In this document: positions 5,739 through 56,180 of the stretch, piece by piece
Numbering within the stretch: the first letter of the stretch is position 1
Layout of the letters: every line of letters begins with the position of its first letter
Source of the DNA: Bacillota bacterium
GTDB taxonomy: Bacteria; Bacillota; UBA994; UBA5500
Assembly (NCBI GenBank): GCA_029781045.1
Contig: JAKOXL010000024.1
Coordinates: 23,210-87,209 of the forward strand
Direction: 5' to 3'
Length of the DNA: 64,000 nt
Made by a program: the position numbers and the translations under genes
The notes under the pieces: generated by a model
What the model saw: the letters and a program-made list of their open reading frames with translations, nothing else
Databases searched by the model: none
Told to the model about the DNA's origin: nothing

Positions 5739-7144
5739 GTCGGTTGGCACAGGGTCTAGTCATAATGCCTAATGAGGTAGCAAGTGGCCTGCTATCTGAG
5801 TTATTGCCGGACGTAACAGTTAGCACCACCTATCAGCCTGGAAACTGGAGGTTCATTATACGGTTTGGTGAAGCAAAAGGTAGCGATGATAGTTCCTTTG
5901 TCCTCAATAGAGCAGCAGTGCTGGATACTCCCGACCTGCTCAGTGAATCCCAGGCCCATTGGCGAGCCAGTTCCTTGCGTTTCTTAGCTCCGGGGAGACG
6001 TATAACCTTCTATAAACGCTATCGGGTGCACGTGTTTGATCTGGAGCCCATCTATATGCAGAGGATAGAGATTGGTCGGCGCCGTACCATTGCGATAAAA
6101 CCCAACAGTTCCCAAGAAGCACGGAGGGTAGGAGAGCTGGCAGTGCGGGCCTTCTACACCGCGGGTCTAGACGTGGGGGCAGTAGATATTGGCATCAGCA
6201 GTAGAGGTAGACTGTATCTTATCAATATCTCAGCCTGCCCTCGCATGGGGAGGGCAATCGCCTTAGCCTACGCCAAGCATATACAGGCGTGGATAAAACG
6301 TATGGAGGTCTATTGGACCAGGAGTCTTCTATCGGGACCAAAATGCCCCCAGTATCTGATCGGCGCTGATCCAGAATTTGCACTGCGCGACGCCCGCACG
6401 GGGCGTATGATTTTTGCTTCCGACTATTTCCCTATACAGGGTCTGGTTGGTTGCGATGCGCGCCGTGTTAAACTCGGGCGCTCCGGATACCCGCTAGCTG
6501 AGATTCGCCCTACTCCTACTCAATGTCCCCTAGAACTCTATGAGGGGATCATCCGAGCCTTACGTAGAGCCAACCGTCTGATGCCGAGCCGCTATGTGCA
6601 GTGGCGAGCCGGAACTCTACCTTTTAGTCAGTTGCCAGTTGGTGGGCATATCCACTTCAGTATGTTACCCACAGGTCCCTTGCTCCGGGCCCTAGATAAT
6701 TATCTGGCCGTTATATTCCTGCTGCTCGAGAACCCAGCTGCCGCCCGCAGCCGCCGGAAAAAGTATGGTTGGCTTGGGGATTACCGTTTGAAAACCCATG
6801 GTGGCTTTGAGTATCGAGTGGTCCCCAGTTGGTTGGTAAGCCCAGTCTTTGCTCGAGGCGCCCTTTGTTTGGCTAAGGTAATAGGTTGTGACTGGCCTTA
6901 TTTACGTTTTGATTTATTCATCCGACCGGAGGCCAAAATGGCCTTCCGACAAGCGGATCAAGACTATTTTCGTGCTCAGCTACCAACCCTCTTGGCGGCC
7001 ATCCGCTCGCTACCCACTTATGAAACCTATGCCACAGAGATAGAAGCACTTCTGAGTTTTATTGAGCAGAACAAGCGCTGGAAAACATCCGATGATATTC
7101 GGCGTAGTTGGCGCCTGGTTAAAAACCGCAGGCGTCGTGCTTGA
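5735..7144 (+). CDS. Fusion protein: a truncated ATP-grasp-like N-terminal module joined to a C-terminal glutamine-synthetase-like (GCS2/amidoligase-type) domain
   Basis: N-terminal part RYRVHVFDLEP...AIKPNSS...AGLDVGAVDIGISSRGRLYLINISACP resembles the C-terminal subdomain of the neighbouring ATP-grasp proteins. The C-terminal part carries GADPEF...(~70 aa)...VGGHIHFS...GGFEYRV, reminiscent of the G-x-E-x-E ... G-x-H-x-H pattern of YbdK/GCS2-type carboxylate-amine ligases. GTGA start/stop overlap with the upstream gene. Confidence 0.55.
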   Translation: MSRLAQGLVIMPNEVASGLLSELLPDVTVSTTYQPGNWRFIIRFGEAKGSDDSSFVLNRAAVLDTPDLLSESQAHWRASSLRFLAPGRRITFYKRYRVHVFDLEPIYMQRIEIGRRRTIAIKPNSSQEARRVGELAVRAFYTAGLDVGAVDIGISSRGRLYLINISACPRMGRAIALAYAKHIQAWIKRMEVYWTRSLLSGPKCPQYLIGADPEFALRDARTGRMIFASDYFPIQGLVGCDARRVKLGRSGYPLAEIRPTPTQCPLELYEGIIRALRRANRLMPSRYVQWRAGTLPFSQLPVGGHIHFSMLPTGPLLRALDNYLAVIFLLLENPAAARSRRKKYGWLGDYRLKTHGGFEYRVVPSWLVSPVFARGALCLAKVIGCDWPYLRFDLFIRPEAKMAFRQADQDYFRAQLPTLLAAIRSLPTYETYATEIEALLSFIEQNKRWKTSDDIRRSWRLVKNRRRRA

Positions 7145-7261: not shown

Positions 7262-8365
7262 GTGGATAATGTGGCATCAAGCCGCGTATTGGTGGGAGTA
7301 ATGACTGCCCGCAGGCCGGGCGCGCGCCCTTTTGTGGAGGGTAGGTTCCTACGTGAACTGTCGTATGCGGCACGTCAAGTCGGAATGCGGTTGATTGTGT
7401 TTAGTCCTCTAGATATTAACTGGGGACAACGTCGAGTCCTTGGTTTCACCTATCGTAGGGGGGTTGGTTGGCAAGGCCGTTACTATCCGGTGCCTCGGAT
7501 AGTATATGATCGCATATTCCCTAGCCGAGGAATGTGGGGACTGTACTTTGGGCAGGTAGCCCGAATGCGTCGTGCTTTCCGCGTTACCATGATGGGGCGT
7601 GGCTTGCACGGCAAGTGGCAAATGTATAGGATTGTACGTCGTTACGAAGACCTACGCCCCCACCTGCCCGAGACCAGATTGGGGAGTGTTCGAAACCTAG
7701 CAATAATGCTGAACCGCTTCGACCTGGTCTATGTTAAACCCGTCTTTGGCAGTGGAGGCAAGGGAATAGCCCGCATTCGACGCTGGCGTGGTGGCTATAT
7801 AGTGGACCGTGTTGGCCGTCCACGTCTCCACGCCAGCTCTCTGGCGTCTGTGGTTGCGGCTCTTGGTGGGATGAGTCGTCGTTATGTGGTTCAGCAAGGC
7901 CTAAGGCTCAACTACTTACGAGGAAGTACTTTTGATATCAGGGCCATAGTTCAGAAGAACGGGGAAGGTCAGTGGCAGGTTTCCGGCAAGGCAGTACGGA
8001 TGAGCCGCCCGGGACGGATTACATCCAATTTGCACACCGGGGGGCGAGCCTATTCTGTGCCTGCCCTTCTACAACGCTGCTTTCCCGACAGGGCAGAGGA
8101 ACTGGAGCAAGAACTGGATAAACTTGCCATTCGTGTAGCGGAAGTCATGAATAGGCATGCTGGTCCTCTTTGCGATCTCGGCCTAGACCTAGGCATAGAT
8201 GCAAATGGCAAGATATGGATAATAGAAGTCAACTCAAAGCCTGGTCGAAAGGTCTTTCTGCAAATGGGTGACCGGGAGGGGCGTCAACGGGTGGTACGTA
8301 CATTGATGGAGTATGCCAAGTACCTGAGTGAGCAACGCAATGAGCAACGGAGCCGGGGGAGGTGA
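7262..8365 (+). CDS. YheC/YheD-family ATP-grasp protein, short YheC-like form. Start may be the GTG at 7271
   Basis: TFDIRAIVQKNGEGQWQVSGKAVRMSRPGRITSNLHTGGRA...IWIIEVNSKPGRK. 367 aa, no N-terminal extension. Confidence 0.75.
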   Translation: MDNVASSRVLVGVMTARRPGARPFVEGRFLRELSYAARQVGMRLIVFSPLDINWGQRRVLGFTYRRGVGWQGRYYPVPRIVYDRIFPSRGMWGLYFGQVARMRRAFRVTMMGRGLHGKWQMYRIVRRYEDLRPHLPETRLGSVRNLAIMLNRFDLVYVKPVFGSGGKGIARIRRWRGGYIVDRVGRPRLHASSLASVVAALGGMSRRYVVQQGLRLNYLRGSTFDIRAIVQKNGEGQWQVSGKAVRMSRPGRITSNLHTGGRAYSVPALLQRCFPDRAEELEQELDKLAIRVAEVMNRHAGPLCDLGLDLGIDANGKIWIIEVNSKPGRKVFLQMGDREGRQRVVRTLMEYAKYLSEQRNEQRSRGR

Positions 8366-8372
8366 ACAGTTG

Positions 8373-9704
8373 ATGGGCGAGACAAATCTGGCTAGGGTTG
8401 TCAGTCGTAGAGCATCATCTACCTGTACCTTACCCCGCAGCCTCCTAGAAAGAACCGGATGGCGGACAGGGGAGATCGTCACTTTTTCCTTCGGCAGTGC
8501 TAGTCGTCGCATGCGGGTACAGGGTGGTGAGGAGGATGTTTGGCAGCTGCCAGCGTCCCTTTTGCGGTCCTTGGGGATGGTGCCTCGGCGGTGGTCTTAC
8601 CACCTGGATACAGAAAGAAGATGGGTAAGGTTCGGTCCCCTCATCGGTATTTTGACCACATGGCAGACTACTCCCTATTTCCGCTCAGTAATGCGGGCTG
8701 CCGCCAGTCGTGGGATGATGGCGGTGGTTTTCCGTCCCCAAAACCTGCATCCGGGAGGACGTCAACTGGAGGGATGGGGCCTAGTAAACGGGATAGTCAG
8801 GCCGGTAAGAGTGCCTTGGCCCGATGTTGTATACAACCGCATTCCTAATCGAGGAGACGAGCTTCTACGGAGCACCAGAGTATGTAAACGCAGGTTAGAA
8901 CAGGCGAGAGTACCCGTATTCAACCGACGGTTCTTTCATAAATGGCGCATTCATCGTCTTTTAAGGCGAGATGAAACAGCCTTACGCTATTTACCGGAGA
9001 CGCAGCCGATGCTTAACTTGCAACAAGTTAGGCATTTCCTTAACCGCTATCCCGCGGCTTACCTGAAACCCAATGGCGGTAGTAAAGGGCACGGCATTGT
9101 GCGGGTTTTGCGGCTCCGAGGCCAGGGCTACCAGATTTCTTTCCGGAAGGGAAACCGCAATTATCAACACACTGTGGGAAGTTGGCCGCAGGCGGCGTCA
9201 ATAATCAGACGGGCTATGGCGCCTCGCAGTTATTTGATACAAGAAGGAATCGCCTTAGCCAATTATCGAGGTCGTCCCTTCGATGTAAGAGTAACGTTAT
9301 ACAAGAACGGTCAAGGGGAATGGGTGCCTTGTGGTCCAGCTGCCAAGATCGCTGGTTATGGAAGTATAACGACCCACGTGGCTAACGGAGGTCGTGTGAT
9401 TCCGCTTTCTCGCGCTCTGCGCTATGCTTTTGGCAATCAGGCGGAGGAGATTAGGACGCGAATTGAAGCAGCAGCAGTGGATCTAGCCCTAGCTGTAGAA
9501 CGCGTGACATCTCTCCAACTGGGTGAGATTGGCCTTGATATCGGGTTAACCGCGCAGGGACGTGTGGCCATGTTTGAAGCCAATAGTAAGCCCGGGCGGG
9601 CAGTCTTCGCAGCGGCTTGGAATCGGCAGGATCGTTGGAAGTCGTTATTACATCTCTGCGACTATGCGGCCAGTTTGGCTGGTTTTGATAGGGGTGTGAG
9701 TTGA
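8373..9704 (+). CDS. YheC/YheD-family ATP-grasp protein, long YheD-like form. Start re-set to the ATG at 8373 after GGGGGAGGTGA
   Basis: RPFDVRVTLYKNGQGEWVPCGPAAKIAGYGSITTHVANGGRV...AMFEANSKPGR. N-terminal LPRSLLERTGW...LPASLLRSLG...GPLIGIL matches the extension on the 4326 protein. Confidence 0.7.
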   Translation: MGETNLARVVSRRASSTCTLPRSLLERTGWRTGEIVTFSFGSASRRMRVQGGEEDVWQLPASLLRSLGMVPRRWSYHLDTERRWVRFGPLIGILTTWQTTPYFRSVMRAAASRGMMAVVFRPQNLHPGGRQLEGWGLVNGIVRPVRVPWPDVVYNRIPNRGDELLRSTRVCKRRLEQARVPVFNRRFFHKWRIHRLLRRDETALRYLPETQPMLNLQQVRHFLNRYPAAYLKPNGGSKGHGIVRVLRLRGQGYQISFRKGNRNYQHTVGSWPQAASIIRRAMAPRSYLIQEGIALANYRGRPFDVRVTLYKNGQGEWVPCGPAAKIAGYGSITTHVANGGRVIPLSRALRYAFGNQAEEIRTRIEAAAVDLALAVERVTSLQLGEIGLDIGLTAQGRVAMFEANSKPGRAVFAAAWNRQDRWKSLLHLCDYAASLAGFDRGVS

Positions 9705-50607: not shown

Positions 50608-50697
50608 TTGGCAGGTTTCTGTGGACTCAATCTAGAAGTGTTACATGGTTGGACCGAATTGAGTCCGCCAGCTAATCATCAAATGGAGGGATTGCCG

Positions 50698-51903
50698 ATG
50701 AGATTTTCCCTTTATGAGGTAATTGCCGGTTTGCATGCCAATAATCAGGATAGGGAGACGGCTAGTTTCATAAGGGAGCTGGAAGCCCTATTAGGACAGT
50801 CGCTCCCCATTACGAAACTGGAGGACTTAGAGCAGGAGGAGCTACCTCTAGTTTTCATCCGCTCAGGTGGTACGGAGGGCCTCTTTCAACAGGTTTATGA
50901 GCAGTTGCCTGAGCCCTATCTCCTGTTGACAACGGGGCGGCAAAACTCGTTAGCCGCTTCCTTGGAGATTCTGACCTTCTTACAGCAGCAAGGCAAACGG
51001 GCAGAGGTACTCCACGGCTCCCCCTCTGCCATTGCCGAGAGATTACAGCAGATTGCCCGTATAGAGAAGGCCTGGAAGAAGCTGAAGGGCCTACGAGTAG
51101 GCTTGATCGGTCGCCCGTCCGACTGGTTGATTGCTAGTGATGTGGCCCCAGAGGTTGCCTATGAACGCCTGGGTGTTCACCTCATCCCCATTGACATGAC
51201 GGAACTGGAGCAAGCTATTGACGGGGTAGCAGGAGTTCCTCAGGAACTGTTGGATTCTTTTGCCCACCCGGATCCGGCAGTGATGGCGGGCGCTCTGCGT
51301 ATCTATCTGGCTTTGCAATCGTTGGTAGAGAAACATCAGCTGGGTGCCTTAACGGTACGCTGTTTTGACCTACTCCAGCCCTATCAGAATACGGGCTGCA
51401 TCGGTGTGGCATTGCTTAACGATGCCGGTATTACGGCCGGTTGTGAAGGCGATGTACCTTCGCTGCTTTCCATGGTGATTCTGCAAGCTCTGACGGAGGA
51501 GCCGGTGTTCATGGCTAACCCTTCGGAGTTGGATGTGGAGAAGAACCAGCTCATTGTGGCTCATTGCACCGTGCCGCTGAGCATTACGGAAGACTATACT
51601 CTGCACACCCATTTTGAGTCGGATCTGGGTGTGGGGGTGCGGGGCAAGATTCGTCCCGGACGCTGCACCGTGTTCAAATTGAGTAGCGACTGCAGCAAGT
51701 TTTTTGTTTCCGCAGGAGAAATCCTCGAGAATTTGGAGCGTCCAAACCTCTGCCGCACCCAGTTGCGCATAACCCTAGATGAAGATGTCAACTATTTCTT
51801 GACCCGTCCGCTGGGGAACCATCATCTGATCAGCCGCGGCGACCATTCTGCCTTGATACAACAGTTCCTTCAAACTCTGGGACTACGTAATGTTCTGCAA
51901 TAA
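50698..51903 (+). CDS. Protein of unknown function, possibly of the L-fucose/L-arabinose isomerase superfamily (weak call)
   Basis: ~400 aa. GCEGDVPSLLSMVILQAL resembles the CEGD metal-site segment of FucI-like isomerases. No other support. Confidence 0.3.
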   Translation: MRFSLYEVIAGLHANNQDRETASFIRELEALLGQSLPITKLEDLEQEELPLVFIRSGGTEGLFQQVYEQLPEPYLLLTTGRQNSLAASLEILTFLQQQGKRAEVLHGSPSAIAERLQQIARIEKAWKKLKGLRVGLIGRPSDWLIASDVAPEVAYERLGVHLIPIDMTELEQAIDGVAGVPQELLDSFAHPDPAVMAGALRIYLALQSLVEKHQLGALTVRCFDLLQPYQNTGCIGVALLNDAGITAGCEGDVPSLLSMVILQALTEEPVFMANPSELDVEKNQLIVAHCTVPLSITEDYTLHTHFESDLGVGVRGKIRPGRCTVFKLSSDCSKFFVSAGEILENLERPNLCRTQLRITLDEDVNYFLTRPLGNHHLISRGDHSALIQQFLQTLGLRNVLQ

Positions 51904-51961: not shown

Positions 51962-53503
51962 TTAGAGTTTCTCGCTAATACTCTTAGCTTGCATAAACAG
52001 TTGCACATAGTCGGGTCCGCCGGCCTTGCTGTCAGTGCCGCTCATATTGAACCCGCCGAAGGGGTGGACTCCCACTAAAGCACCGGTGCAGTGCCGATTC
52101 AGATACAGGTTACCCACATGGAACTCAGCCTTGGCCTTCTCTAAATGCTTCCTATTCAGGCTATAAACCGAACCGGTAAGGCCATAAATGGTGTTGTTGG
52201 CGATGGCTAGAGCTTCGTCGAAGTTGGCAGCTCGGATGAAGGCCAAAACGGGGCCAAAAATCTCTTCCTGAGCCAGCCGTGCATCAGGCCTGACATCGGC
52301 GAAAATGGTGGGCTTGATATAGTAACCCTGTCGGTCGTCATACTCGCCGCCCAGGACTAATCGGCCTTCATGGCCGCACTCCCTAATATAGGAAGTGATT
52401 TTGGCAAAGGCCGCTGCATCAATCACTGCTCCCACCGCATAGTTTTCAGCAGCAGGACCAATAGCCAATTGCTTGGTTAGCTCAACTACCCTTGCCAGCA
52501 CCTGATCATAGATGGAATCAACGACGATGGCTCGAGAACAAGCCGAGCATTTTTGTCCCTGGAAGCCGAAGGCTGATTTAACAATGCCTTGGGCCGCCGC
52601 TTCCAGGTCGGCGCTTTCATCGACGATAATGGCGTCTTTGCCACCCATCTCAGCCACGACGCGTTTGATCCAGATCTGCCCCGGCTGGGTGACGGCCGCC
52701 TGCTGGTTGATACGTAAGCCAACAGCCATGGAGCCGGTGAAGTTGACGAAACGGGTACGGGGATGGCTGACCAAATACTCCCCTATTTCGCTACCACTGC
52801 CCGGCAAGTAGGTTACTACGCCTGCTGGCAAGTAGATTTCCCTTAGCAACTCATGGAACTTGGCTCCGATGACGGCAGCCGTATTGGCTGGCTTGATGAT
52901 CACCGTATTACCAGCTACAATGGCCGCTGTTGTCATACCCACCAGAATGGCGAAGGGGAAGTTCCAAGGGGAGATGGCTAGCCCGACGCCAAGTGGAATG
53001 TAGGTGAAGCTGTTGCGCTCTCCGGGTAGTGGCGTGGGCGTTCTGCCGGCACTCAGTTCCAGAGCTTGCCGAGCATAGTATTCACAGAAATCGATGGCTT
53101 CCGCCACGTCCGCATCGGCTTCAACCCAGTTCTTGCCCACTTCTAGAATTAGCCAAGCCGTCAGTTCCGCTTTCCGGCGGCGGATGGTGGCGGCCAGCTT
53201 GAACAGGTAATCGGCTCTCACTTGCATGGGTAGACTGCTCCAGCTAGCGAAAGCTTTCCAAGCCGTCTCCATTGCCAGTTCGGCATGTTCGGCGGCTCCT
53301 TGCGATACGAAGCCGATTACTTCTTGGTGGTTACAGGGATTAAGGGAAGCGAAGGTGCGCTCTGTGGTGATTGCTTGCTCACCGATCATTAAAGGGTAAG
53401 TCTGCCCCAGCTGGCACTTTACTTGGGCAATGGCTGTTTCCAGAACTTTACGGTTCTCCGCCAAGGAGAAGTCGGTTAACGGTTCGTTGCGAAAGGGAAT
53501 CAA
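51962..53503 (-). CDS. rocA: 1-pyrroline-5-carboxylate (L-glutamate gamma-semialdehyde) dehydrogenase
   Basis: [12 protein letters not shown]... N-terminus and ALDH-family catalytic region ([11 protein letters not shown]) closely match RocA/PutC. Confidence 0.85.
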
Positions 53504-53684
53504 TTGCTCAACCTCCTTCAGGAAAAGTTTAATTTATCTCATTATCTTCTACACCCATCTTCCTATTCCTACTTACCACAAGAATAAGTTATTTATGAAA
53601 TAGCTACTTTCAGAACTGACTTGTAGTGATCAGTAGGGTCTAGTACTATCGTATGTACAAAAACAGTGAGCAGGAGGGAGATTT

Positions 53685-54254
53685 TTGCAGAGGATTAAAA
53701 GGCAAGCCGTGGTTTTGCTCTGCGCGTTACTTTTCATAATGGCTTTCGGGTGCCAAGACAGGGGTCCAGAAGAAGAGCAGCCCCAGTTCTTGCTGGTGCC
53801 GGAAGGTCGCTTTCTGCCTATTGCTGAAAGACCTAAGATCATACCCTTTGATGGAATCGATCTCTCTACTGGTGAGCAAGTTGCCCTTACAGTGGCTGGG
53901 GAAGGGCGAGTCCGTATGCTCTCCTTCTTTTCTTCTGGCTGACAAGCCTGCATTATAGAGTTGCTGCAGTTGCAGCCGGAACTAGCTGCTTTGAAAGAAC
54001 AAGGCGTTGATCTATATGTAATAGCAATTGGTAGCGAGAAAGACTTGTCCTGGTTCTTTAACGAAGTTCAGCTGGAAGCGACTATTATCCATGACACCGA
54101 TTTTTCCATCTTCCAGAAGTACTCCGTTGTTGCTTTGCCTTCCCTGTTGTTGATCGACAAGGAGGGGAGAGTGGCCTTCAACTTGGTGGGCTGGGGTTTA
54201 GAGGCTTTCACTGAGCAGATACAGCCTCTACTTACGGATTTGCTGGCTGAGTAG
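53685..54254 (+). CDS. TlpA/ResA-family thioredoxin-like lipoprotein with an in-frame UGA at 53940-53942 in the redox motif (G-U-Q-A-C); a candidate selenoprotein
   Basis: ORFs 53685-53942 and 53961-54254 are in the same frame, separated only by TGA. Read through, they give lipoprotein signal (LLCALLFIMAFGC)...IPFDGIDLSTGEQVALTVAGEGRVRMLSFFSSG-U-QACIIELLQLQPELAALKEQGVDLYVIAIG...VVALPSLLLIDKEGRV, a complete TlpA-like thioredoxin fold with TGA exactly at the first Cys of CxxC. Confidence 0.6.
53959..53983 (+). promoter_or_regulatory. Candidate bacterial SECIS hairpin 17 nt downstream of the UGA
   Basis: AGUU-GCUGC-[AGUU]-GCAGC-(CGG bulge)-AACU interrupted stem-loop with G and U in the apical tetraloop. 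Confidence 0.4.
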
Positions 54255-54269
54255 AGAAGGGGGATTGTT

Positions 54270-54404
54270 ATGAGGGAGAGGGCGGGGAAGGCCCTGTTGT
54301 TAGTTGGCTTGGCCACAATGATCTTGGGACTGTGGCGAGAGGAGGCGCTTTTGGTGCTAGAGAAAGCCATTATTATCTGTTTACAGTGTATTGGTATTGG
54401 CTAG
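54270..54404 (+). CDS. Unannotated 44-aa ORF: a single-TM peptide with a C-terminal CxxC
   Basis: MRERAGKALLLVGLATMILGLWREEALLVLEKAIIICLQCIGIG. AAGGGGGA RBS 6 nt upstream. Its stop abuts the GTG start of the next gene. Confidence 0.3.
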   Translation: MRERAGKALLLVGLATMILGLWREEALLVLEKAIIICLQCIGIG

Positions 54405-55277
54405 GTGTGGGATGCCATGTACAGACGTAGATTAAGTCAAATTCTGGCAACGGTTGCTAGTAATAGTTATCTGCCTGGATGGTTAAAAGGTAGGATATAT
54501 CAGGGAAAACTGAAGATGATATGCGTTCCTTTCCTCAACTGCTATTCCTGTCCTGGCGCTATTGGTTCCTGCCCGGTTGGGGCCTTTCAGTCACTGGCGG
54601 CCGGGTATGGCCGTACTATTTCGCTCTACATCAGTGGCTTTCTGCTAGCCGTGGGCGCACTCGGAGGGCGTTTTGTCTGTGGCTGGCTCTGTCCTTTTGG
54701 TCTGGTACAAGAGCTGTGCTACGGCGGGAAGGGTAGGCTGCGTCAGCTGCCACCTCTCGTGGAGAAACTGAAGTTTTTGGTGTTGGGGCTGACTGTGGCT
54801 TTACCCTTTGTCTGGCGTGATCCGACCGGGCTGGCGGAACCCTACTTTTGTAAATTTGCTTGCCCTGCTGGCACTTTCCAAGCCGGCCTACCGCTGGTGT
54901 CTCTAAGCCCCGCACTACAGGGTCTAGTGGGCTGGCTGTTCAGTTGGAAGCTGGCGGTGTTGCTCTTGGTGCTAATGGCGGCCCATTACTACTGGCGCCC
55001 CTTTTGTCGCGTTCTGTGCCCTCTGGGGGCCTTCTATGGACTGCTTAATCGCTGGAGCATCTGGCAGCTTCGCTTAAATCGCCATCGCTGCACCGACTGT
55101 GGAGCCTGTGCCCGTCAGTGCCAAGCTTGTTTAAACCCCAGGCTTGAATCTAATAGTAGCGCTTGTATCCGTTGTCTAGAGTGTGTCAGTGTCTGCCCCA
55201 CGCGGGCTCTGAGCTTCGCTAATCACACAGTGAACAGTCAAAGATTTACTTCTAAAGGAAACACAGTAGGGAAATAG
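54405..55277 (+). CDS. NapH/MauN/FixG-like membrane polyferredoxin (two CxxxCP[FL]G membrane motifs plus two 4Fe-4S CxxCxxCxxxC motifs)
   Basis: CGWLCPFG and CRVLCPLG in TM regions; CTDCGACARQC and CIRCLECVSVCP ferredoxin motifs near the C-terminus; a CYSCPGAIGSCP N-terminal motif. Confidence 0.55.
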   Translation: MWDAMYRRRLSQILATVASNSYLPGWLKGRIYQGKLKMICVPFLNCYSCPGAIGSCPVGAFQSLAAGYGRTISLYISGFLLAVGALGGRFVCGWLCPFGLVQELCYGGKGRLRQLPPLVEKLKFLVLGLTVALPFVWRDPTGLAEPYFCKFACPAGTFQAGLPLVSLSPALQGLVGWLFSWKLAVLLLVLMAAHYYWRPFCRVLCPLGAFYGLLNRWSIWQLRLNRHRCTDCGACARQCQACLNPRLESNSSACIRCLECVSVCPTRALSFANHTVNSQRFTSKGNTVGK

Positions 55278-55376
55278 TATATAATAATTATGAATTAGCA
55301 TAGCATAATTGAATAGTAACCCAGCGGGTGTGTAAAGGAGGGGAAGCCCATAGGAGGCGAAGATACTCGCACAAAA

Positions 55377-56180
55377 GTGTACGTAGTTTCCGACGCCCTA
55401 GGTGAGACGGCCGAATTTGTGGTACGAGCGGCCGCCAGTCAGTTCTCCAGTACACAAATGGAAATTGTGCGCATGCCCTATGTGAACAATAGGCAATATG
55501 TGAGGGAAATTGTGACTAAGGCTGCACAAGACCGTAGTATTCTGGCCTACACATTGGTGGTTGATGAGCTACGAGAAGAAATGATTGCTGCCACCAATGA
55601 GCTGGGGGTGCCTACCATAGACATTTTGGGACCAGTGCTCAAGACCATGTCGGCGGTGACCCGGGAGAAGCCCCTCATGCGGGCTGGTTTACTGCGCCGC
55701 ATGGACGAAGAATACTTCCGTAAAGTGGAAGCGGTCGAGTTCGCCGTGAAGTATGACGACGGGAAAGACCCTCATGGCCTAATGGCAGCCGACATGGTGC
55801 TGATTGGTGTCTCCCGCACCTCAAAGACGCCAGTCTGTATGTACTTAGCTCACAAGGGTGTCAAGGCGGCTAACGTACCCTTGGTACCCGAGGTAAAACT
55901 GCCCGAGGAGCTTTTTGCTCTTCCTCCCGGTCGTATTGTGGGGCTGACCATCAATCCCAGCTTCCTCAATGAAATCCGCTTGGAGAGGTTAAAAACCTTG
56001 GGGCTTACGGCCAATGCGGAGTATGCCAGTCTAGCACGTATCCTCGCCGAGTTGGACTATGCGGAAGGGGTAATGAGAAAACTGGGCTGCCCAGTGATCG
56101 ATGTGACCAATCGGGCAGTGGAGGAAACGGCCACCAAAGTATTAGAGATTTATTACAGGAGGGAAAGGCATGCCAAGTAG
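55377..56180 (+). CDS. Pyruvate, phosphate dikinase regulatory protein (PDRP, DUF299 kinase/phosphotransferase)
   Basis: YVVSDALGETAEF N-terminus and the GVSRTSKTP P-loop. Confidence 0.85.
   Translation: MYVVSDALGETAEFVVRAAASQFSSTQMEIVRMPYVNNRQYVREIVTKAAQDRSILAYTLVVDELREEMIAATNELGVPTIDILGPVLKTMSAVTREKPLMRAGLLRRMDEEYFRKVEAVEFAVKYDDGKDPHGLMAADMVLIGVSRTSKTPVCMYLAHKGVKAANVPLVPEVKLPEELFALPPGRIVGLTINPSFLNEIRLERLKTLGLTANAEYASLARILAELDYAEGVMRKLGCPVIDVTNRAVEETATKVLEIYYRRERHAK

Follow-up and report, generated by a model that had tools for sequence, protein, structure and literature searches.

The 64-kb window analysed here, taken from contig JAKOXL010000024.1 of a Bacillota bacterium, carries three closely packed plus-strand genes. 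They encode a TlpA-like lipoprotein with a selenocysteine (Sec), a 44-aa membrane peptide ending in a CxxC motif, and a NapH-type membrane polyferredoxin. These genes are ordinary members of a widespread yet uncharacterised cassette. Judging from sequence conservation and from the anatomy of the cysteines, we lean with moderate confidence to the view that the cassette brings cytoplasmic reducing power to the cell surface. It has the appearance of a new, non-homologous version of systems which bring reductant across the membrane to extracytoplasmic thioredoxins. The elements concerned are:

53685..54254, plus strand: TlpA/redoxin-like thiol-disulfide oxidoreductase, a lipoprotein with Sec at UGA 53940-53942 (Pfam matches, UGA alignment)
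53960..53977, plus strand: bacterial selenocysteine insertion sequence (SECIS)-like hairpin GCUGC-AGUU-GCAGC, which begins 18 nt 3' of the UGA (nucleotide conservation)
54270..54404, plus strand: 44-aa single-pass membrane peptide of the CD1871A family (NCBIfam NF040920, homologous open reading frames in 80/80 loci)
54417..55277, plus strand: NapH-type integral membrane polyferredoxin of 286 aa, or 290 aa from GTG 54405 (Fer4_5, Fer4, NapH alignment, AlphaFold2 model)

An earlier note on this DNA had proposed that a NapH-type protein could serve as electron conduit to the (seleno)thiol oxidoreductase, and had regarded such a pairing as uncommon. Co-occurrence and anatomy support the former suggestion; the direction of flow and the chemistry we infer. 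The latter must be abandoned: the pairing is the normal context of this polyferredoxin family.

Conservation of the cassette

Polyferredoxin homologues are frequent, with at least 574 matches in the species collection. The forward sample comprised 80 genome loci with such a homologue. A small open reading frame (ORF) is present in every one of them, nearly always directly 5' of the polyferredoxin gene, and in 76 of the 80 it lies directly upstream and carries the strict motif. The four non-strict loci also hold a small ORF, e.g., L038 with a 3-residue C-terminal extension and L049 with a TGA in place of the first Cys codon. In L041 and L046 (Lachnoanaerobaculum) the small ORF is located about 2 kb 3' of the polyferredoxin gene, ending at 7135 and 7142, respectively, and is nearer to the TlpA-like gene (7918-8604). 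Thus, the peptide gene is separable from the polyferredoxin gene yet is retained in the locus.

Genes within three positions of the pair were ranked and clustered in 78 of the 80 loci. One dominant neighbour family emerged, the TlpA-like proteins, in 52 loci; they are the immediate upstream neighbour on the same strand in 43 and the immediate downstream neighbour in 5. A profile search which reads through TGA raised the number of loci with a same-strand TlpA-like gene to 62 of 80. Almost all of these partners have a lipobox or a signal sequence. Sec-type forms occur in L005, L006, L028, L033, and L037, the other partners being of the Cys-type WC[GSTP]PC. The remaining neighbour families were each seen in no more than 8 loci (ABC ATPases, response regulators, Rrf2 regulators etc.). 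This heterogeneity indicates that the trio travels as a self-contained cassette through unrelated contexts. No napG, napA, napB or mau genes were detected in the window, and none recur near the 78 neighbour-clustered loci. Independent public gene calls with Pfam annotation show the same order, i.e., Redoxin - 54 aa - Fer4_5.

The cassette occurs in several phyla, and the polyferredoxin partners are only 40-67% identical across the 80 loci. Hosts are mostly Clostridia (Lachnospiraceae, Oscillospiraceae, Christensenellales, Peptostreptococcaceae, Syntrophomonadaceae, Pelotomaculum), joined by Negativicutes, Treponema, Aminicenantes, and Acidobacteriota. A metagenome-assembled genome (MAG) of the Acidobacteriota contains the same trio, with Sec.

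The reverse direction was examined with 16 metagenome loci retrieved with an alignment of Sec-type TlpA-like proteins; a first metagenome scan with a single TlpA-like protein had given no matches, and the alignment-based rescan succeeded. A polyferredoxin gene adjoins the Sec-type TlpA-like gene in 12 of the 16 loci, and a small ORF is detectable in 8 of these 12. Of the four loci without a polyferredoxin, two are contigs too short to tell. The active site FSxx-U-xxC is found in all 15 metagenome loci in which the site is visible. Hence the co-occurrence analysis which the earlier note had suggested is strongly positive both ways.

Two kinds of neighbourhood may be mentioned here. In L092 (2734-4387) and in L093, the other two metagenome loci lacking an adjacent polyferredoxin, the Sec-type TlpA-like gene lies directly 3' of a fused MsrA-MsrB gene, with no NapH-like gene within 4 kb. 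This neighbour hints at methionine-sulfoxide repair as a downstream use of the TlpA-like thioredoxin subfamily. In L102 (5592-8906; Clostridium sp., GCA_002341865.1) the order Redoxin - small ORF - polyferredoxin is followed by arsD, arsA, and an ACR3/SBF-type transporter gene. Being one case, it may be a coincidence or may reflect a link to metalloid stress.

The small CxxC peptide

The small ORF starts with ATG at 54270, 5 nt downstream of the Shine-Dalgarno-like GAAGGGGGA, and stops with TAG at 54402-54404. Its translation is MRERAGKALLLVGLATMILGLWREEALLVLEKAIIICLQCIGIG. The peptide has a basic N-terminus, one transmembrane (TM) segment, and an acidic/amphipathic tail ending with ICLQCIGIG; the CxxC motif, CLQC, is encoded at 54378-54389. 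The earlier note had located both ORFs correctly, and its description of the small one, with a ribosome-binding site, one hydrophobic segment, and a C-terminal CLQC, holds. The small ORF is not unannotated, as had been claimed there. Gene callers have it in public assemblies, and it belongs to a curated family, NF040920, "CD1871A family CXXC motif-containing protein". Against this 38-position model with a curated cut-off of 32 bits the peptide scores 50.6 bits (E 1.3e-13), residues 9-44 aligning with positions 3-38. The peptide conforms to the description of the family (about 40-70 aa, one TM, C-terminal CxxC-[IV]-G-[IL]-G-stop).

A word-indexed homology search with the 44-aa peptide matched itself alone, and an exhaustive phmmer search of 1.84 billion proteins was required. 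It returned 91 small cluster representatives at E <= 1e-3, nearly all matched at the extreme C-terminus. The small ORFs of the 76 strict-motif loci end with R-G-E-x3-V-L-x-K-A-[IV]-x-I-C-[LM]-E-C-I-G-I-G-stop; the C-terminal consensus of the family was derived from 77 ORFs, i.e., those of the 76 strict-motif loci and the window copy. The commonest length of the small ORFs in related loci is 48 aa; their distances to the start of the polyferredoxin fall mostly between -8 and +60 nt. The N-termini vary freely, whereas amino-acid conservation of the C-terminal 24 residues extends to every one of the 80 loci. Conservation of the C-terminus while N-termini diverge is the signature of a translated peptide. 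On these comparative grounds 54270-54404 is a genuine gene and no chance ORF. The net charge of the N-terminal part is +3.4, that of the tail -1.1, which predicts an N-in/C-out orientation with the CxxC motif at the outer face.

In L049 (4918-4959; Clostridium tepidiprofundi DSM 19306, NZ_LTBA01000017.1) a TGA occupies the position of the first Cys of the peptide CxxC (…KAVRV-U-LECIGIG-TAA), and a hairpin, GGAUU-GGGU-AAUCC, follows this TGA. L049 may represent a selenocysteine form of the peptide; as the one case in about 100 loci it may also be due to a mutation or a sequencing error. If real, it would mark the first Cys of the CxxC as redox-active.

The polyferredoxin and its cysteines

The polyferredoxin has four helical membrane segments according to hydropathy and to an AlphaFold2 model (predicted local distance difference test score 90.2, predicted template modelling score 0.86). 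Structure matches to the PDB comprise the 2x[4Fe-4S] ferredoxin domain only; no solved structure covering the membrane module was found there. The conserved cysteines, numbered according to the 290-aa model starting at GTG, are arranged as follows:

54522..54572, plus strand: family-specific 4-Cys cluster C40-x5-C46-x2-C49-x6-C56 (CVPFLNCYSCPGAIGSCP) in the loop between TM1 and TM2, extracytoplasmic by prediction (conserved without exception in 81/81 loci and 85/85 proteins)
54678..54695, plus strand: CxxxCP motif 1 (C92, C96, P97), shared with NapH, at the predicted cytoplasmic face after TM2 (NapH alignment)
54849..54866, plus strand: extra CxxxCP (C149, C153, P154) in the TM3-TM4 loop, predicted extracytoplasmic (invariant, in an insertion absent from NapH)
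55005..55022, plus strand: NapH-type CxxxCP motif 2 (C201, C205, P206) at the predicted cytoplasmic face after TM4 (NapH alignment)
55089..55196, plus strand: two CxxCxxCxxxC(P) [4Fe-4S] motifs, C229/232/235/239 and C254/257/260/264 (Pfam Fer4, Fer4_10)

All 18 conserved cysteines are invariant in 85 homologues and in 81 of 81 loci (the 80 related loci plus the window copy). Two 4Fe-4S ferredoxin motifs and the NapH-type build, both seen in the earlier note, are confirmed; its count of two CxxxCP motifs is not, because there are three, in addition to the invariant 4-Cys cluster.

The protein matches Pfam Fer4_5 (PF12801) with 52.8 bits in 3 stretches, above the gathering threshold of 22 bits. 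It remains below the cut-offs for NapH/MauN (TIGR02163, 65.4 versus 213.05 bits; NF007013, 64.6 versus 234 bits), and likewise fails the models for CcoG/FixG (TIGR02745, 17.1 versus 316.7 bits) and NosR (NF046105, 23.2 versus 1000 bits). No homology to DsbD/CcdA was seen among the 12 Pfam families and the best 25 of 39 NCBIfam families listed for it. In public records such proteins carry generic labels, "4Fe-4S binding protein" or "ferredoxin-type protein NapH". An alignment with E. coli K-12 NapH gives 26% identity. In this alignment the 4-Cys cluster resides in an 11-residue insertion between TM1 and TM2, and the third CxxxCP in a 24-residue insertion between TM3 and TM4; both are missing from E. 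coli NapH.

The density of Lys plus Arg per residue is 0.43 at the N-terminus, 0.18 in the TM2-TM3 loop, and 0.14 in the segment after TM4. It is lowest in the Cys-bearing loops, 0.08 in TM1-TM2 and 0.06 in TM3-TM4. These densities, a ferredoxin domain which lacks a signal and hence is cytoplasmic, and the four-TM module known from NapH, NosR, and RdhC (PMC5928378) together lead to the predicted topology. It would place the six family-specific invariant cysteines at the outer face, and the four cysteines of the two NapH-type CxxxCP motifs plus the eight ferredoxin cysteines at the inner face. The side which the ferredoxin domain faces, a question raised in the earlier note, is thereby predicted: together with two CxxxCP motifs it lies on the K/R-rich, cytoplasmic side.

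Several candidate variants did not stand up to scrutiny. Sec in the polyferredoxin was rejected; the in-frame stops of four tblastn alignments are all past the true C-terminus, and all Cys are Cys. Gene fusions as Rosetta-stone evidence were not obtained. Long open frames 5' of some small ORFs are merely unstopped frames, and the homologues in the public clusters P0043, P0072, and P0080 (350-418 aa) carry the TM3-TM4/CxxxCP segment in internal tandem duplication; most likely they arose as chimeras during assembly and are not natural variants. In a Christensenellaceae chromosome (L053, 6052-6735) a second, divergent NapH-like paralogue with 24% identity to the window protein is situated directly 3' of the first.

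The TlpA-like selenoprotein

The upstream gene has a TTG start with the Shine-Dalgarno sequence AGGAGGGAG 5' of it. Its product carries a lipobox, AFGC (…FIMAFGC), with the Cys codon at 53751, and matches AhpC-TSA (49.2 bits) and Redoxin (29.8 bits) of Pfam. The in-frame TGA at 53940-53942 yields the active site SSG-U-QAC. A Redoxin/AhpC-TSA fold, a C/UxxC site, and an extracytoplasmic anchor, the lipobox, are the attributes of a TlpA/ResA-like protein. It scores below the cut-offs of individual subfamilies (ResA NF002854, 45.8 versus 170 bits; StoA NF041202, 34.1 versus 210 bits; DsbE TIGR00385, 20.2 versus 123 bits).

In alignments the UGA of the window gene falls on the first Cys of the WCxPC of Cys-type homologues, and 13 other distinct loci have a UGA at this position. 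Downstream of it, GTGCTGCAGTTGCAGCC is nearly invariant in nucleotides in 13 distinct Sec-type loci, with proteins which are merely 27-51% identical. In L006 an A>G exchange in the hairpin retains a U.G pair yet turns Gln into Arg. The motif 'LQLQP' is shared by the Sec-type TlpA-like proteins, and GTGCTGCAGTTGCAGCC is kept at synonymous sites, too (window, L005/L086, L006, L028, L087-L099). Conservation at the nucleotide level which includes synonymous sites indicates that 'LQLQP' reflects an RNA constraint. An Rfam scan of 53400-55500 gave no match, i.e., no curated SECIS model fits, and the z-score of a single-sequence fold is only -1.33. The assignment is made because of comparative conservation, not because of Rfam or the fold score: the hairpin behaves as a bacterial SECIS of an uncatalogued type, without a match to an Rfam family. 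By the same comparisons, the upstream TlpA-like gene is a genuine selenoprotein gene; aligned UGA and Cys codons and the conserved hairpin bear out what the earlier note had put forward as a putative selenoprotein.

UxxC thiol-disulfide-isomerase-like or TlpA-like selenoproteins (cd02966) as a class have already been catalogued (PMC13188914). In the searchable portion of that catalogue a linkage to a polyferredoxin or to a small peptide is not mentioned. The SAO selenoprotein system of Haft (bioRxiv 10.1101/2022.07.06.499078) is unrelated to the cassette.

A proposed electron path

We propose that the cytoplasmic 2x[4Fe-4S] domain accepts electrons; the probable donor is reduced ferredoxin or some other compound of low potential. 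The electrons would pass through the four-helix CxxxCP membrane module to the six invariant cysteines in the two outward loops. The 44-aa peptide would be an obligatory subunit with its CxxC at the outer face, where it may either complete the outer redox centre or shuttle between this centre and the partner. The final acceptor would be the thioredoxin-fold lipoprotein (UxxC here, WCxPC elsewhere) which, once reduced, could act on disulfides or other oxidised groups of extracytoplasmic targets. The conversion of one- into two-electron chemistry would resemble that of ferredoxin:thioredoxin reductase.

The anatomy fits such a conduit through the membrane. On the K/R-rich side are the ferredoxin domain and two of the CxxxCP motifs, six cysteines are in the predicted outer loops, and the tail of the peptide is predicted outside. 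The lipoprotein partner with its reductase-type WC[GSTP]PC or UxxC site fits equally. Fe-S potentials are low enough for reducing thioredoxin-type disulfides and selenenylsulfides, and most host taxa of the cassette are strict anaerobes. A reductant at the ferredoxin level would suit the reduction of a selenenylsulfide.

Four points weigh against this proposal. In 18 of the 80 loci peptide and polyferredoxin occur without an adjacent TlpA-like gene. This marks the pair as the core and the lipoprotein as a frequent partner; the TlpA-like protein is perhaps not the sole or an obligatory acceptor. TM1 is weakly hydrophobic, and the first Cys loop has a net charge of +3.2; therefore, the topology leans mainly on the homology to NapH. 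To our knowledge, no route has been described by which a membrane protein inserted via the Sec translocon could acquire Fe-S clusters at its outer face, so the outer cysteines probably act as thiol/disulfide pairs or as metal ligands. A last weak point is the passage of electrons from the inner to the outer centre, for which the proposal offers no mechanism.

Alternative explanations

Peptide and polyferredoxin might constitute a general extracytoplasmic reductase or metal-handling unit, directed at Cu, As, Hg or Se ions or at small-molecule disulfides. Metals would then be bound or reduced at a site formed by the outer cysteines and the CxxC of the peptide, with the TlpA-like protein as a mere accessory which keeps these thiols reduced. 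The universality of the pair (80/80) as compared with the adjacency of a TlpA-like gene (62/80) can be read in this manner, as can the eight clustered cysteines, typical of metal sites, the arsD-arsA-ACR3 genes following one locus, and Rrf2-type regulators or pyridine-nucleotide disulfide oxidoreductases near a few. CcoG, a related NapH-family protein, has been reported as a cupric reductase. The CcoG model, however, scores a mere 17 bits here against its cut-off of 316.7, metal-related neighbours do not recur (each in 1-5 of the 80 loci), and consistent linkage is seen solely for the gene of the thioredoxin-fold lipoprotein, whose motif is that of a classical reductase. We regard this explanation as unlikely, though deserving attention. 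Quite improbable is a flow in the oxidising, DsbB/VKOR-like direction, in which the TlpA-like protein would insert disulfides into exported proteins and the pair would pass the electrons to a cytoplasmic acceptor. A conserved cassette by itself gives no direction, and Clostridia sporulate; spore or exported proteins can require disulfide management. Yet the active sites are of the thioredoxin/TlpA-type, WCGPC, WCSPC or WCPPC, and not of the DsbA-type, CPHC, and a Sec as nucleophile is typical of reductases. The cassette occurs in strict anaerobes and, according to established redox chemistry, electrons from thiols find a poor sink in low-potential [4Fe-4S] ferredoxin domains.

Hardly more credit, if not slightly less, is due to the membrane protein as a NapH-like (mena)quinol dehydrogenase which would deliver quinol electrons to an extracytoplasmic acceptor as in NapGH. 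It has been suggested that the membrane part of NapH is the domain which oxidises quinol (PMC5928378). The architecture of four helices, two CX3CP motifs, and 2x[4Fe-4S], and some sequence similarity, are indeed common to NapH; on the other hand, the protein reaches 65 bits against NapH cut-offs of 213 and 234, napG, napA, and napB were not found nearby, and the extra outer cysteines are missing from NapH. Moreover, menaquinol is too weak for thioredoxin-type disulfides, and Lachnospiraceae and Oscillospiraceae are generally quinone-poor. That the adjacency has no functional meaning, or that the small ORF is untranslated, has a negligible probability. Scans for promoters and terminators are uninformative. 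Nevertheless, conservation and co-occurrence have effectively refuted this notion already: the C-terminal 24 residues of the peptide persist in all loci next to partners of such limited identity and despite divergent N-termini, and the cassette recurs in unrelated contexts in several phyla. The export of reducing power through the cassette thus remains the explanation which we prefer.

Comparison with known systems

The closest functional parallel is DsbD/CcdA (ScsB), which serves TlpA, ResA, CcmG, StoA, and Etrx. The job proposed for the cassette is the same, i.e., transfer of cytoplasmic reductant to an anchored extracytoplasmic CxxC protein with a thioredoxin fold. DsbD/CcdA is non-homologous to the cassette and uses one membrane-embedded Cys pair which receives electrons from cytoplasmic thioredoxin by thiol-disulfide exchange. 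In contrast, the cassette has a 2x[4Fe-4S] input on a NapH-type scaffold, ten conserved non-ferredoxin cysteines, and a separate 44-aa CxxC subunit. As far as sequences permit a judgement, it would be a functional analogue of DsbD/CcdA on a non-homologous Fe-S scaffold. DsbD/CcdA is often encoded beside its partner, as in the Etrx-CcdA-MsrAB system of Streptococcus pneumoniae (PMC3914529); the MsrAB neighbour in L092 and L093 recalls this arrangement and hints at a similar part in the repair of oxidative damage. The earlier note had remarked on the lack of ccdA. A CcdA-like multi-pass protein is indeed not evident among the ORFs of the window on inspection, a statement which applies to the window and not to the whole genome.

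NapH/MauN and the polyferredoxin are alike in having four TM helices, RRxxQ in the first helix, CxxxCP after TM2 and TM4, and C-terminal 2x[4Fe-4S]. Unlike NapH, the polyferredoxin has two Cys-bearing outer-loop insertions, and the small CxxC peptide and a thioredoxin-fold partner take the place of NapG/NapA/NapB. NosR/NirI and RdhC (PceC) possess a membrane module with two CX3CP motifs and are proposed electron carriers to an extracytoplasmic enzyme (PMC5928378). Their outer centre is an extracytoplasmic domain which binds flavin mononucleotide, whereas the cassette would use cysteines and the CxxC peptide. Ferredoxin:thioredoxin reductase and heterodisulfide reductase are precedents for the reduction of disulfides by one-electron Fe-S chemistry with a reductant at the ferredoxin level. 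Both are sequence-unrelated to the cassette, soluble or otherwise organised, and do not act across a membrane.

In a wider context, one may tentatively, and with a confidence just short of even, think of a third, undescribed class of transmembrane disulfide reductases beside DsbD/CcdA for reduction and DsbB/VKOR for oxidation, in which electrons at the ferredoxin level would drive extracytoplasmic thiol/selenol chemistry in strict anaerobes. Its members would be a NapH-type Fe-S membrane protein, an obligatory CxxC (occasionally UxxC) subunit of about 45 aa, and a thioredoxin-fold lipoprotein. The textbook route from cytoplasmic thioredoxin to DsbD/CcdA derives from aerobes and facultative organisms. 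How Clostridia, gut Lachnospiraceae/Oscillospiraceae, and oral treponemes keep their surface thiol-disulfide oxidoreductases reduced is poorly understood, and the compact three-gene cassette is present in at least several hundred species. If our proposal is true, it would define a new route of reductant export, with low-potential Fe-S electrons passed directly to an extracytoplasmic (seleno)thioredoxin. It would also assign a biochemical role to a catalogued, uncharacterised micro-protein family, CD1871A/NF040920, and offer a function and a tractable handle for the puzzling CX3CP motifs which NapH, NosR, and RdhC have in common as a superfamily. The alternation of Sec and Cys, seen in the partner and perhaps also in the peptide, flags catalytic residues for mutagenesis.

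A literature search outside subscription journals brought up no paper on the CD1871A family and none describing a cassette of NapH-type polyferredoxin, TlpA, and small peptide; with this coverage a prior description is possible. CD1871 itself appears in the literature as a C. difficile conjugative-transposon region or an ABC permease, without functional information.

Layout of the locus

The three genes are located between a divergent aldehyde dehydrogenase gene (51962-53503, minus strand) and the PDRP-PPDK pair (from 55377). The window comes from the genome of a spore-forming Bacillota and also carries the dcw cluster and spoIIGA-sigE-sigG; uncultured 'Bacillota bacterium' MAGs are its closest named relatives. 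A scan of the locus for promoters and terminators gave nothing beyond expectation, and no tRNA genes were found in the 64-kb window.

The earlier note had the polyferredoxin start directly at the stop of the small ORF, giving 290 aa. GTG 54405 does abut this stop, but the homologues align from ATG 54417 (MYRRR...), and public gene calls likewise start there, giving 286 aa. Hence the junction is probably 12 nt rather than 0 nt. The AGGTG Shine-Dalgarno sequence of the polyferredoxin overlaps the TAG stop of the small ORF, so that even with a 12-nt spacer the arrangement remains compatible with coupled translation. Both ORFs are in one reading frame, parted solely by TAG 54402-54404. In other loci spacing and frame vary (-8 to +216 nt); thus, fusion by read-through is not conserved.

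A plus-strand ORF of 431 aa (50608-51903; 401 aa in public gene calls), flanked by proC and the aldehyde dehydrogenase gene, has no Pfam match on record and is kept in all four identical public contigs. Two minus-strand ORFs, 53630-53953 (107 aa) and 54068-54370 (100 aa), run antisense to parts of the TlpA-like gene and the small gene; with their low-complexity, Arg/Ser/Pro-rich translations they are best read as shadow ORFs.

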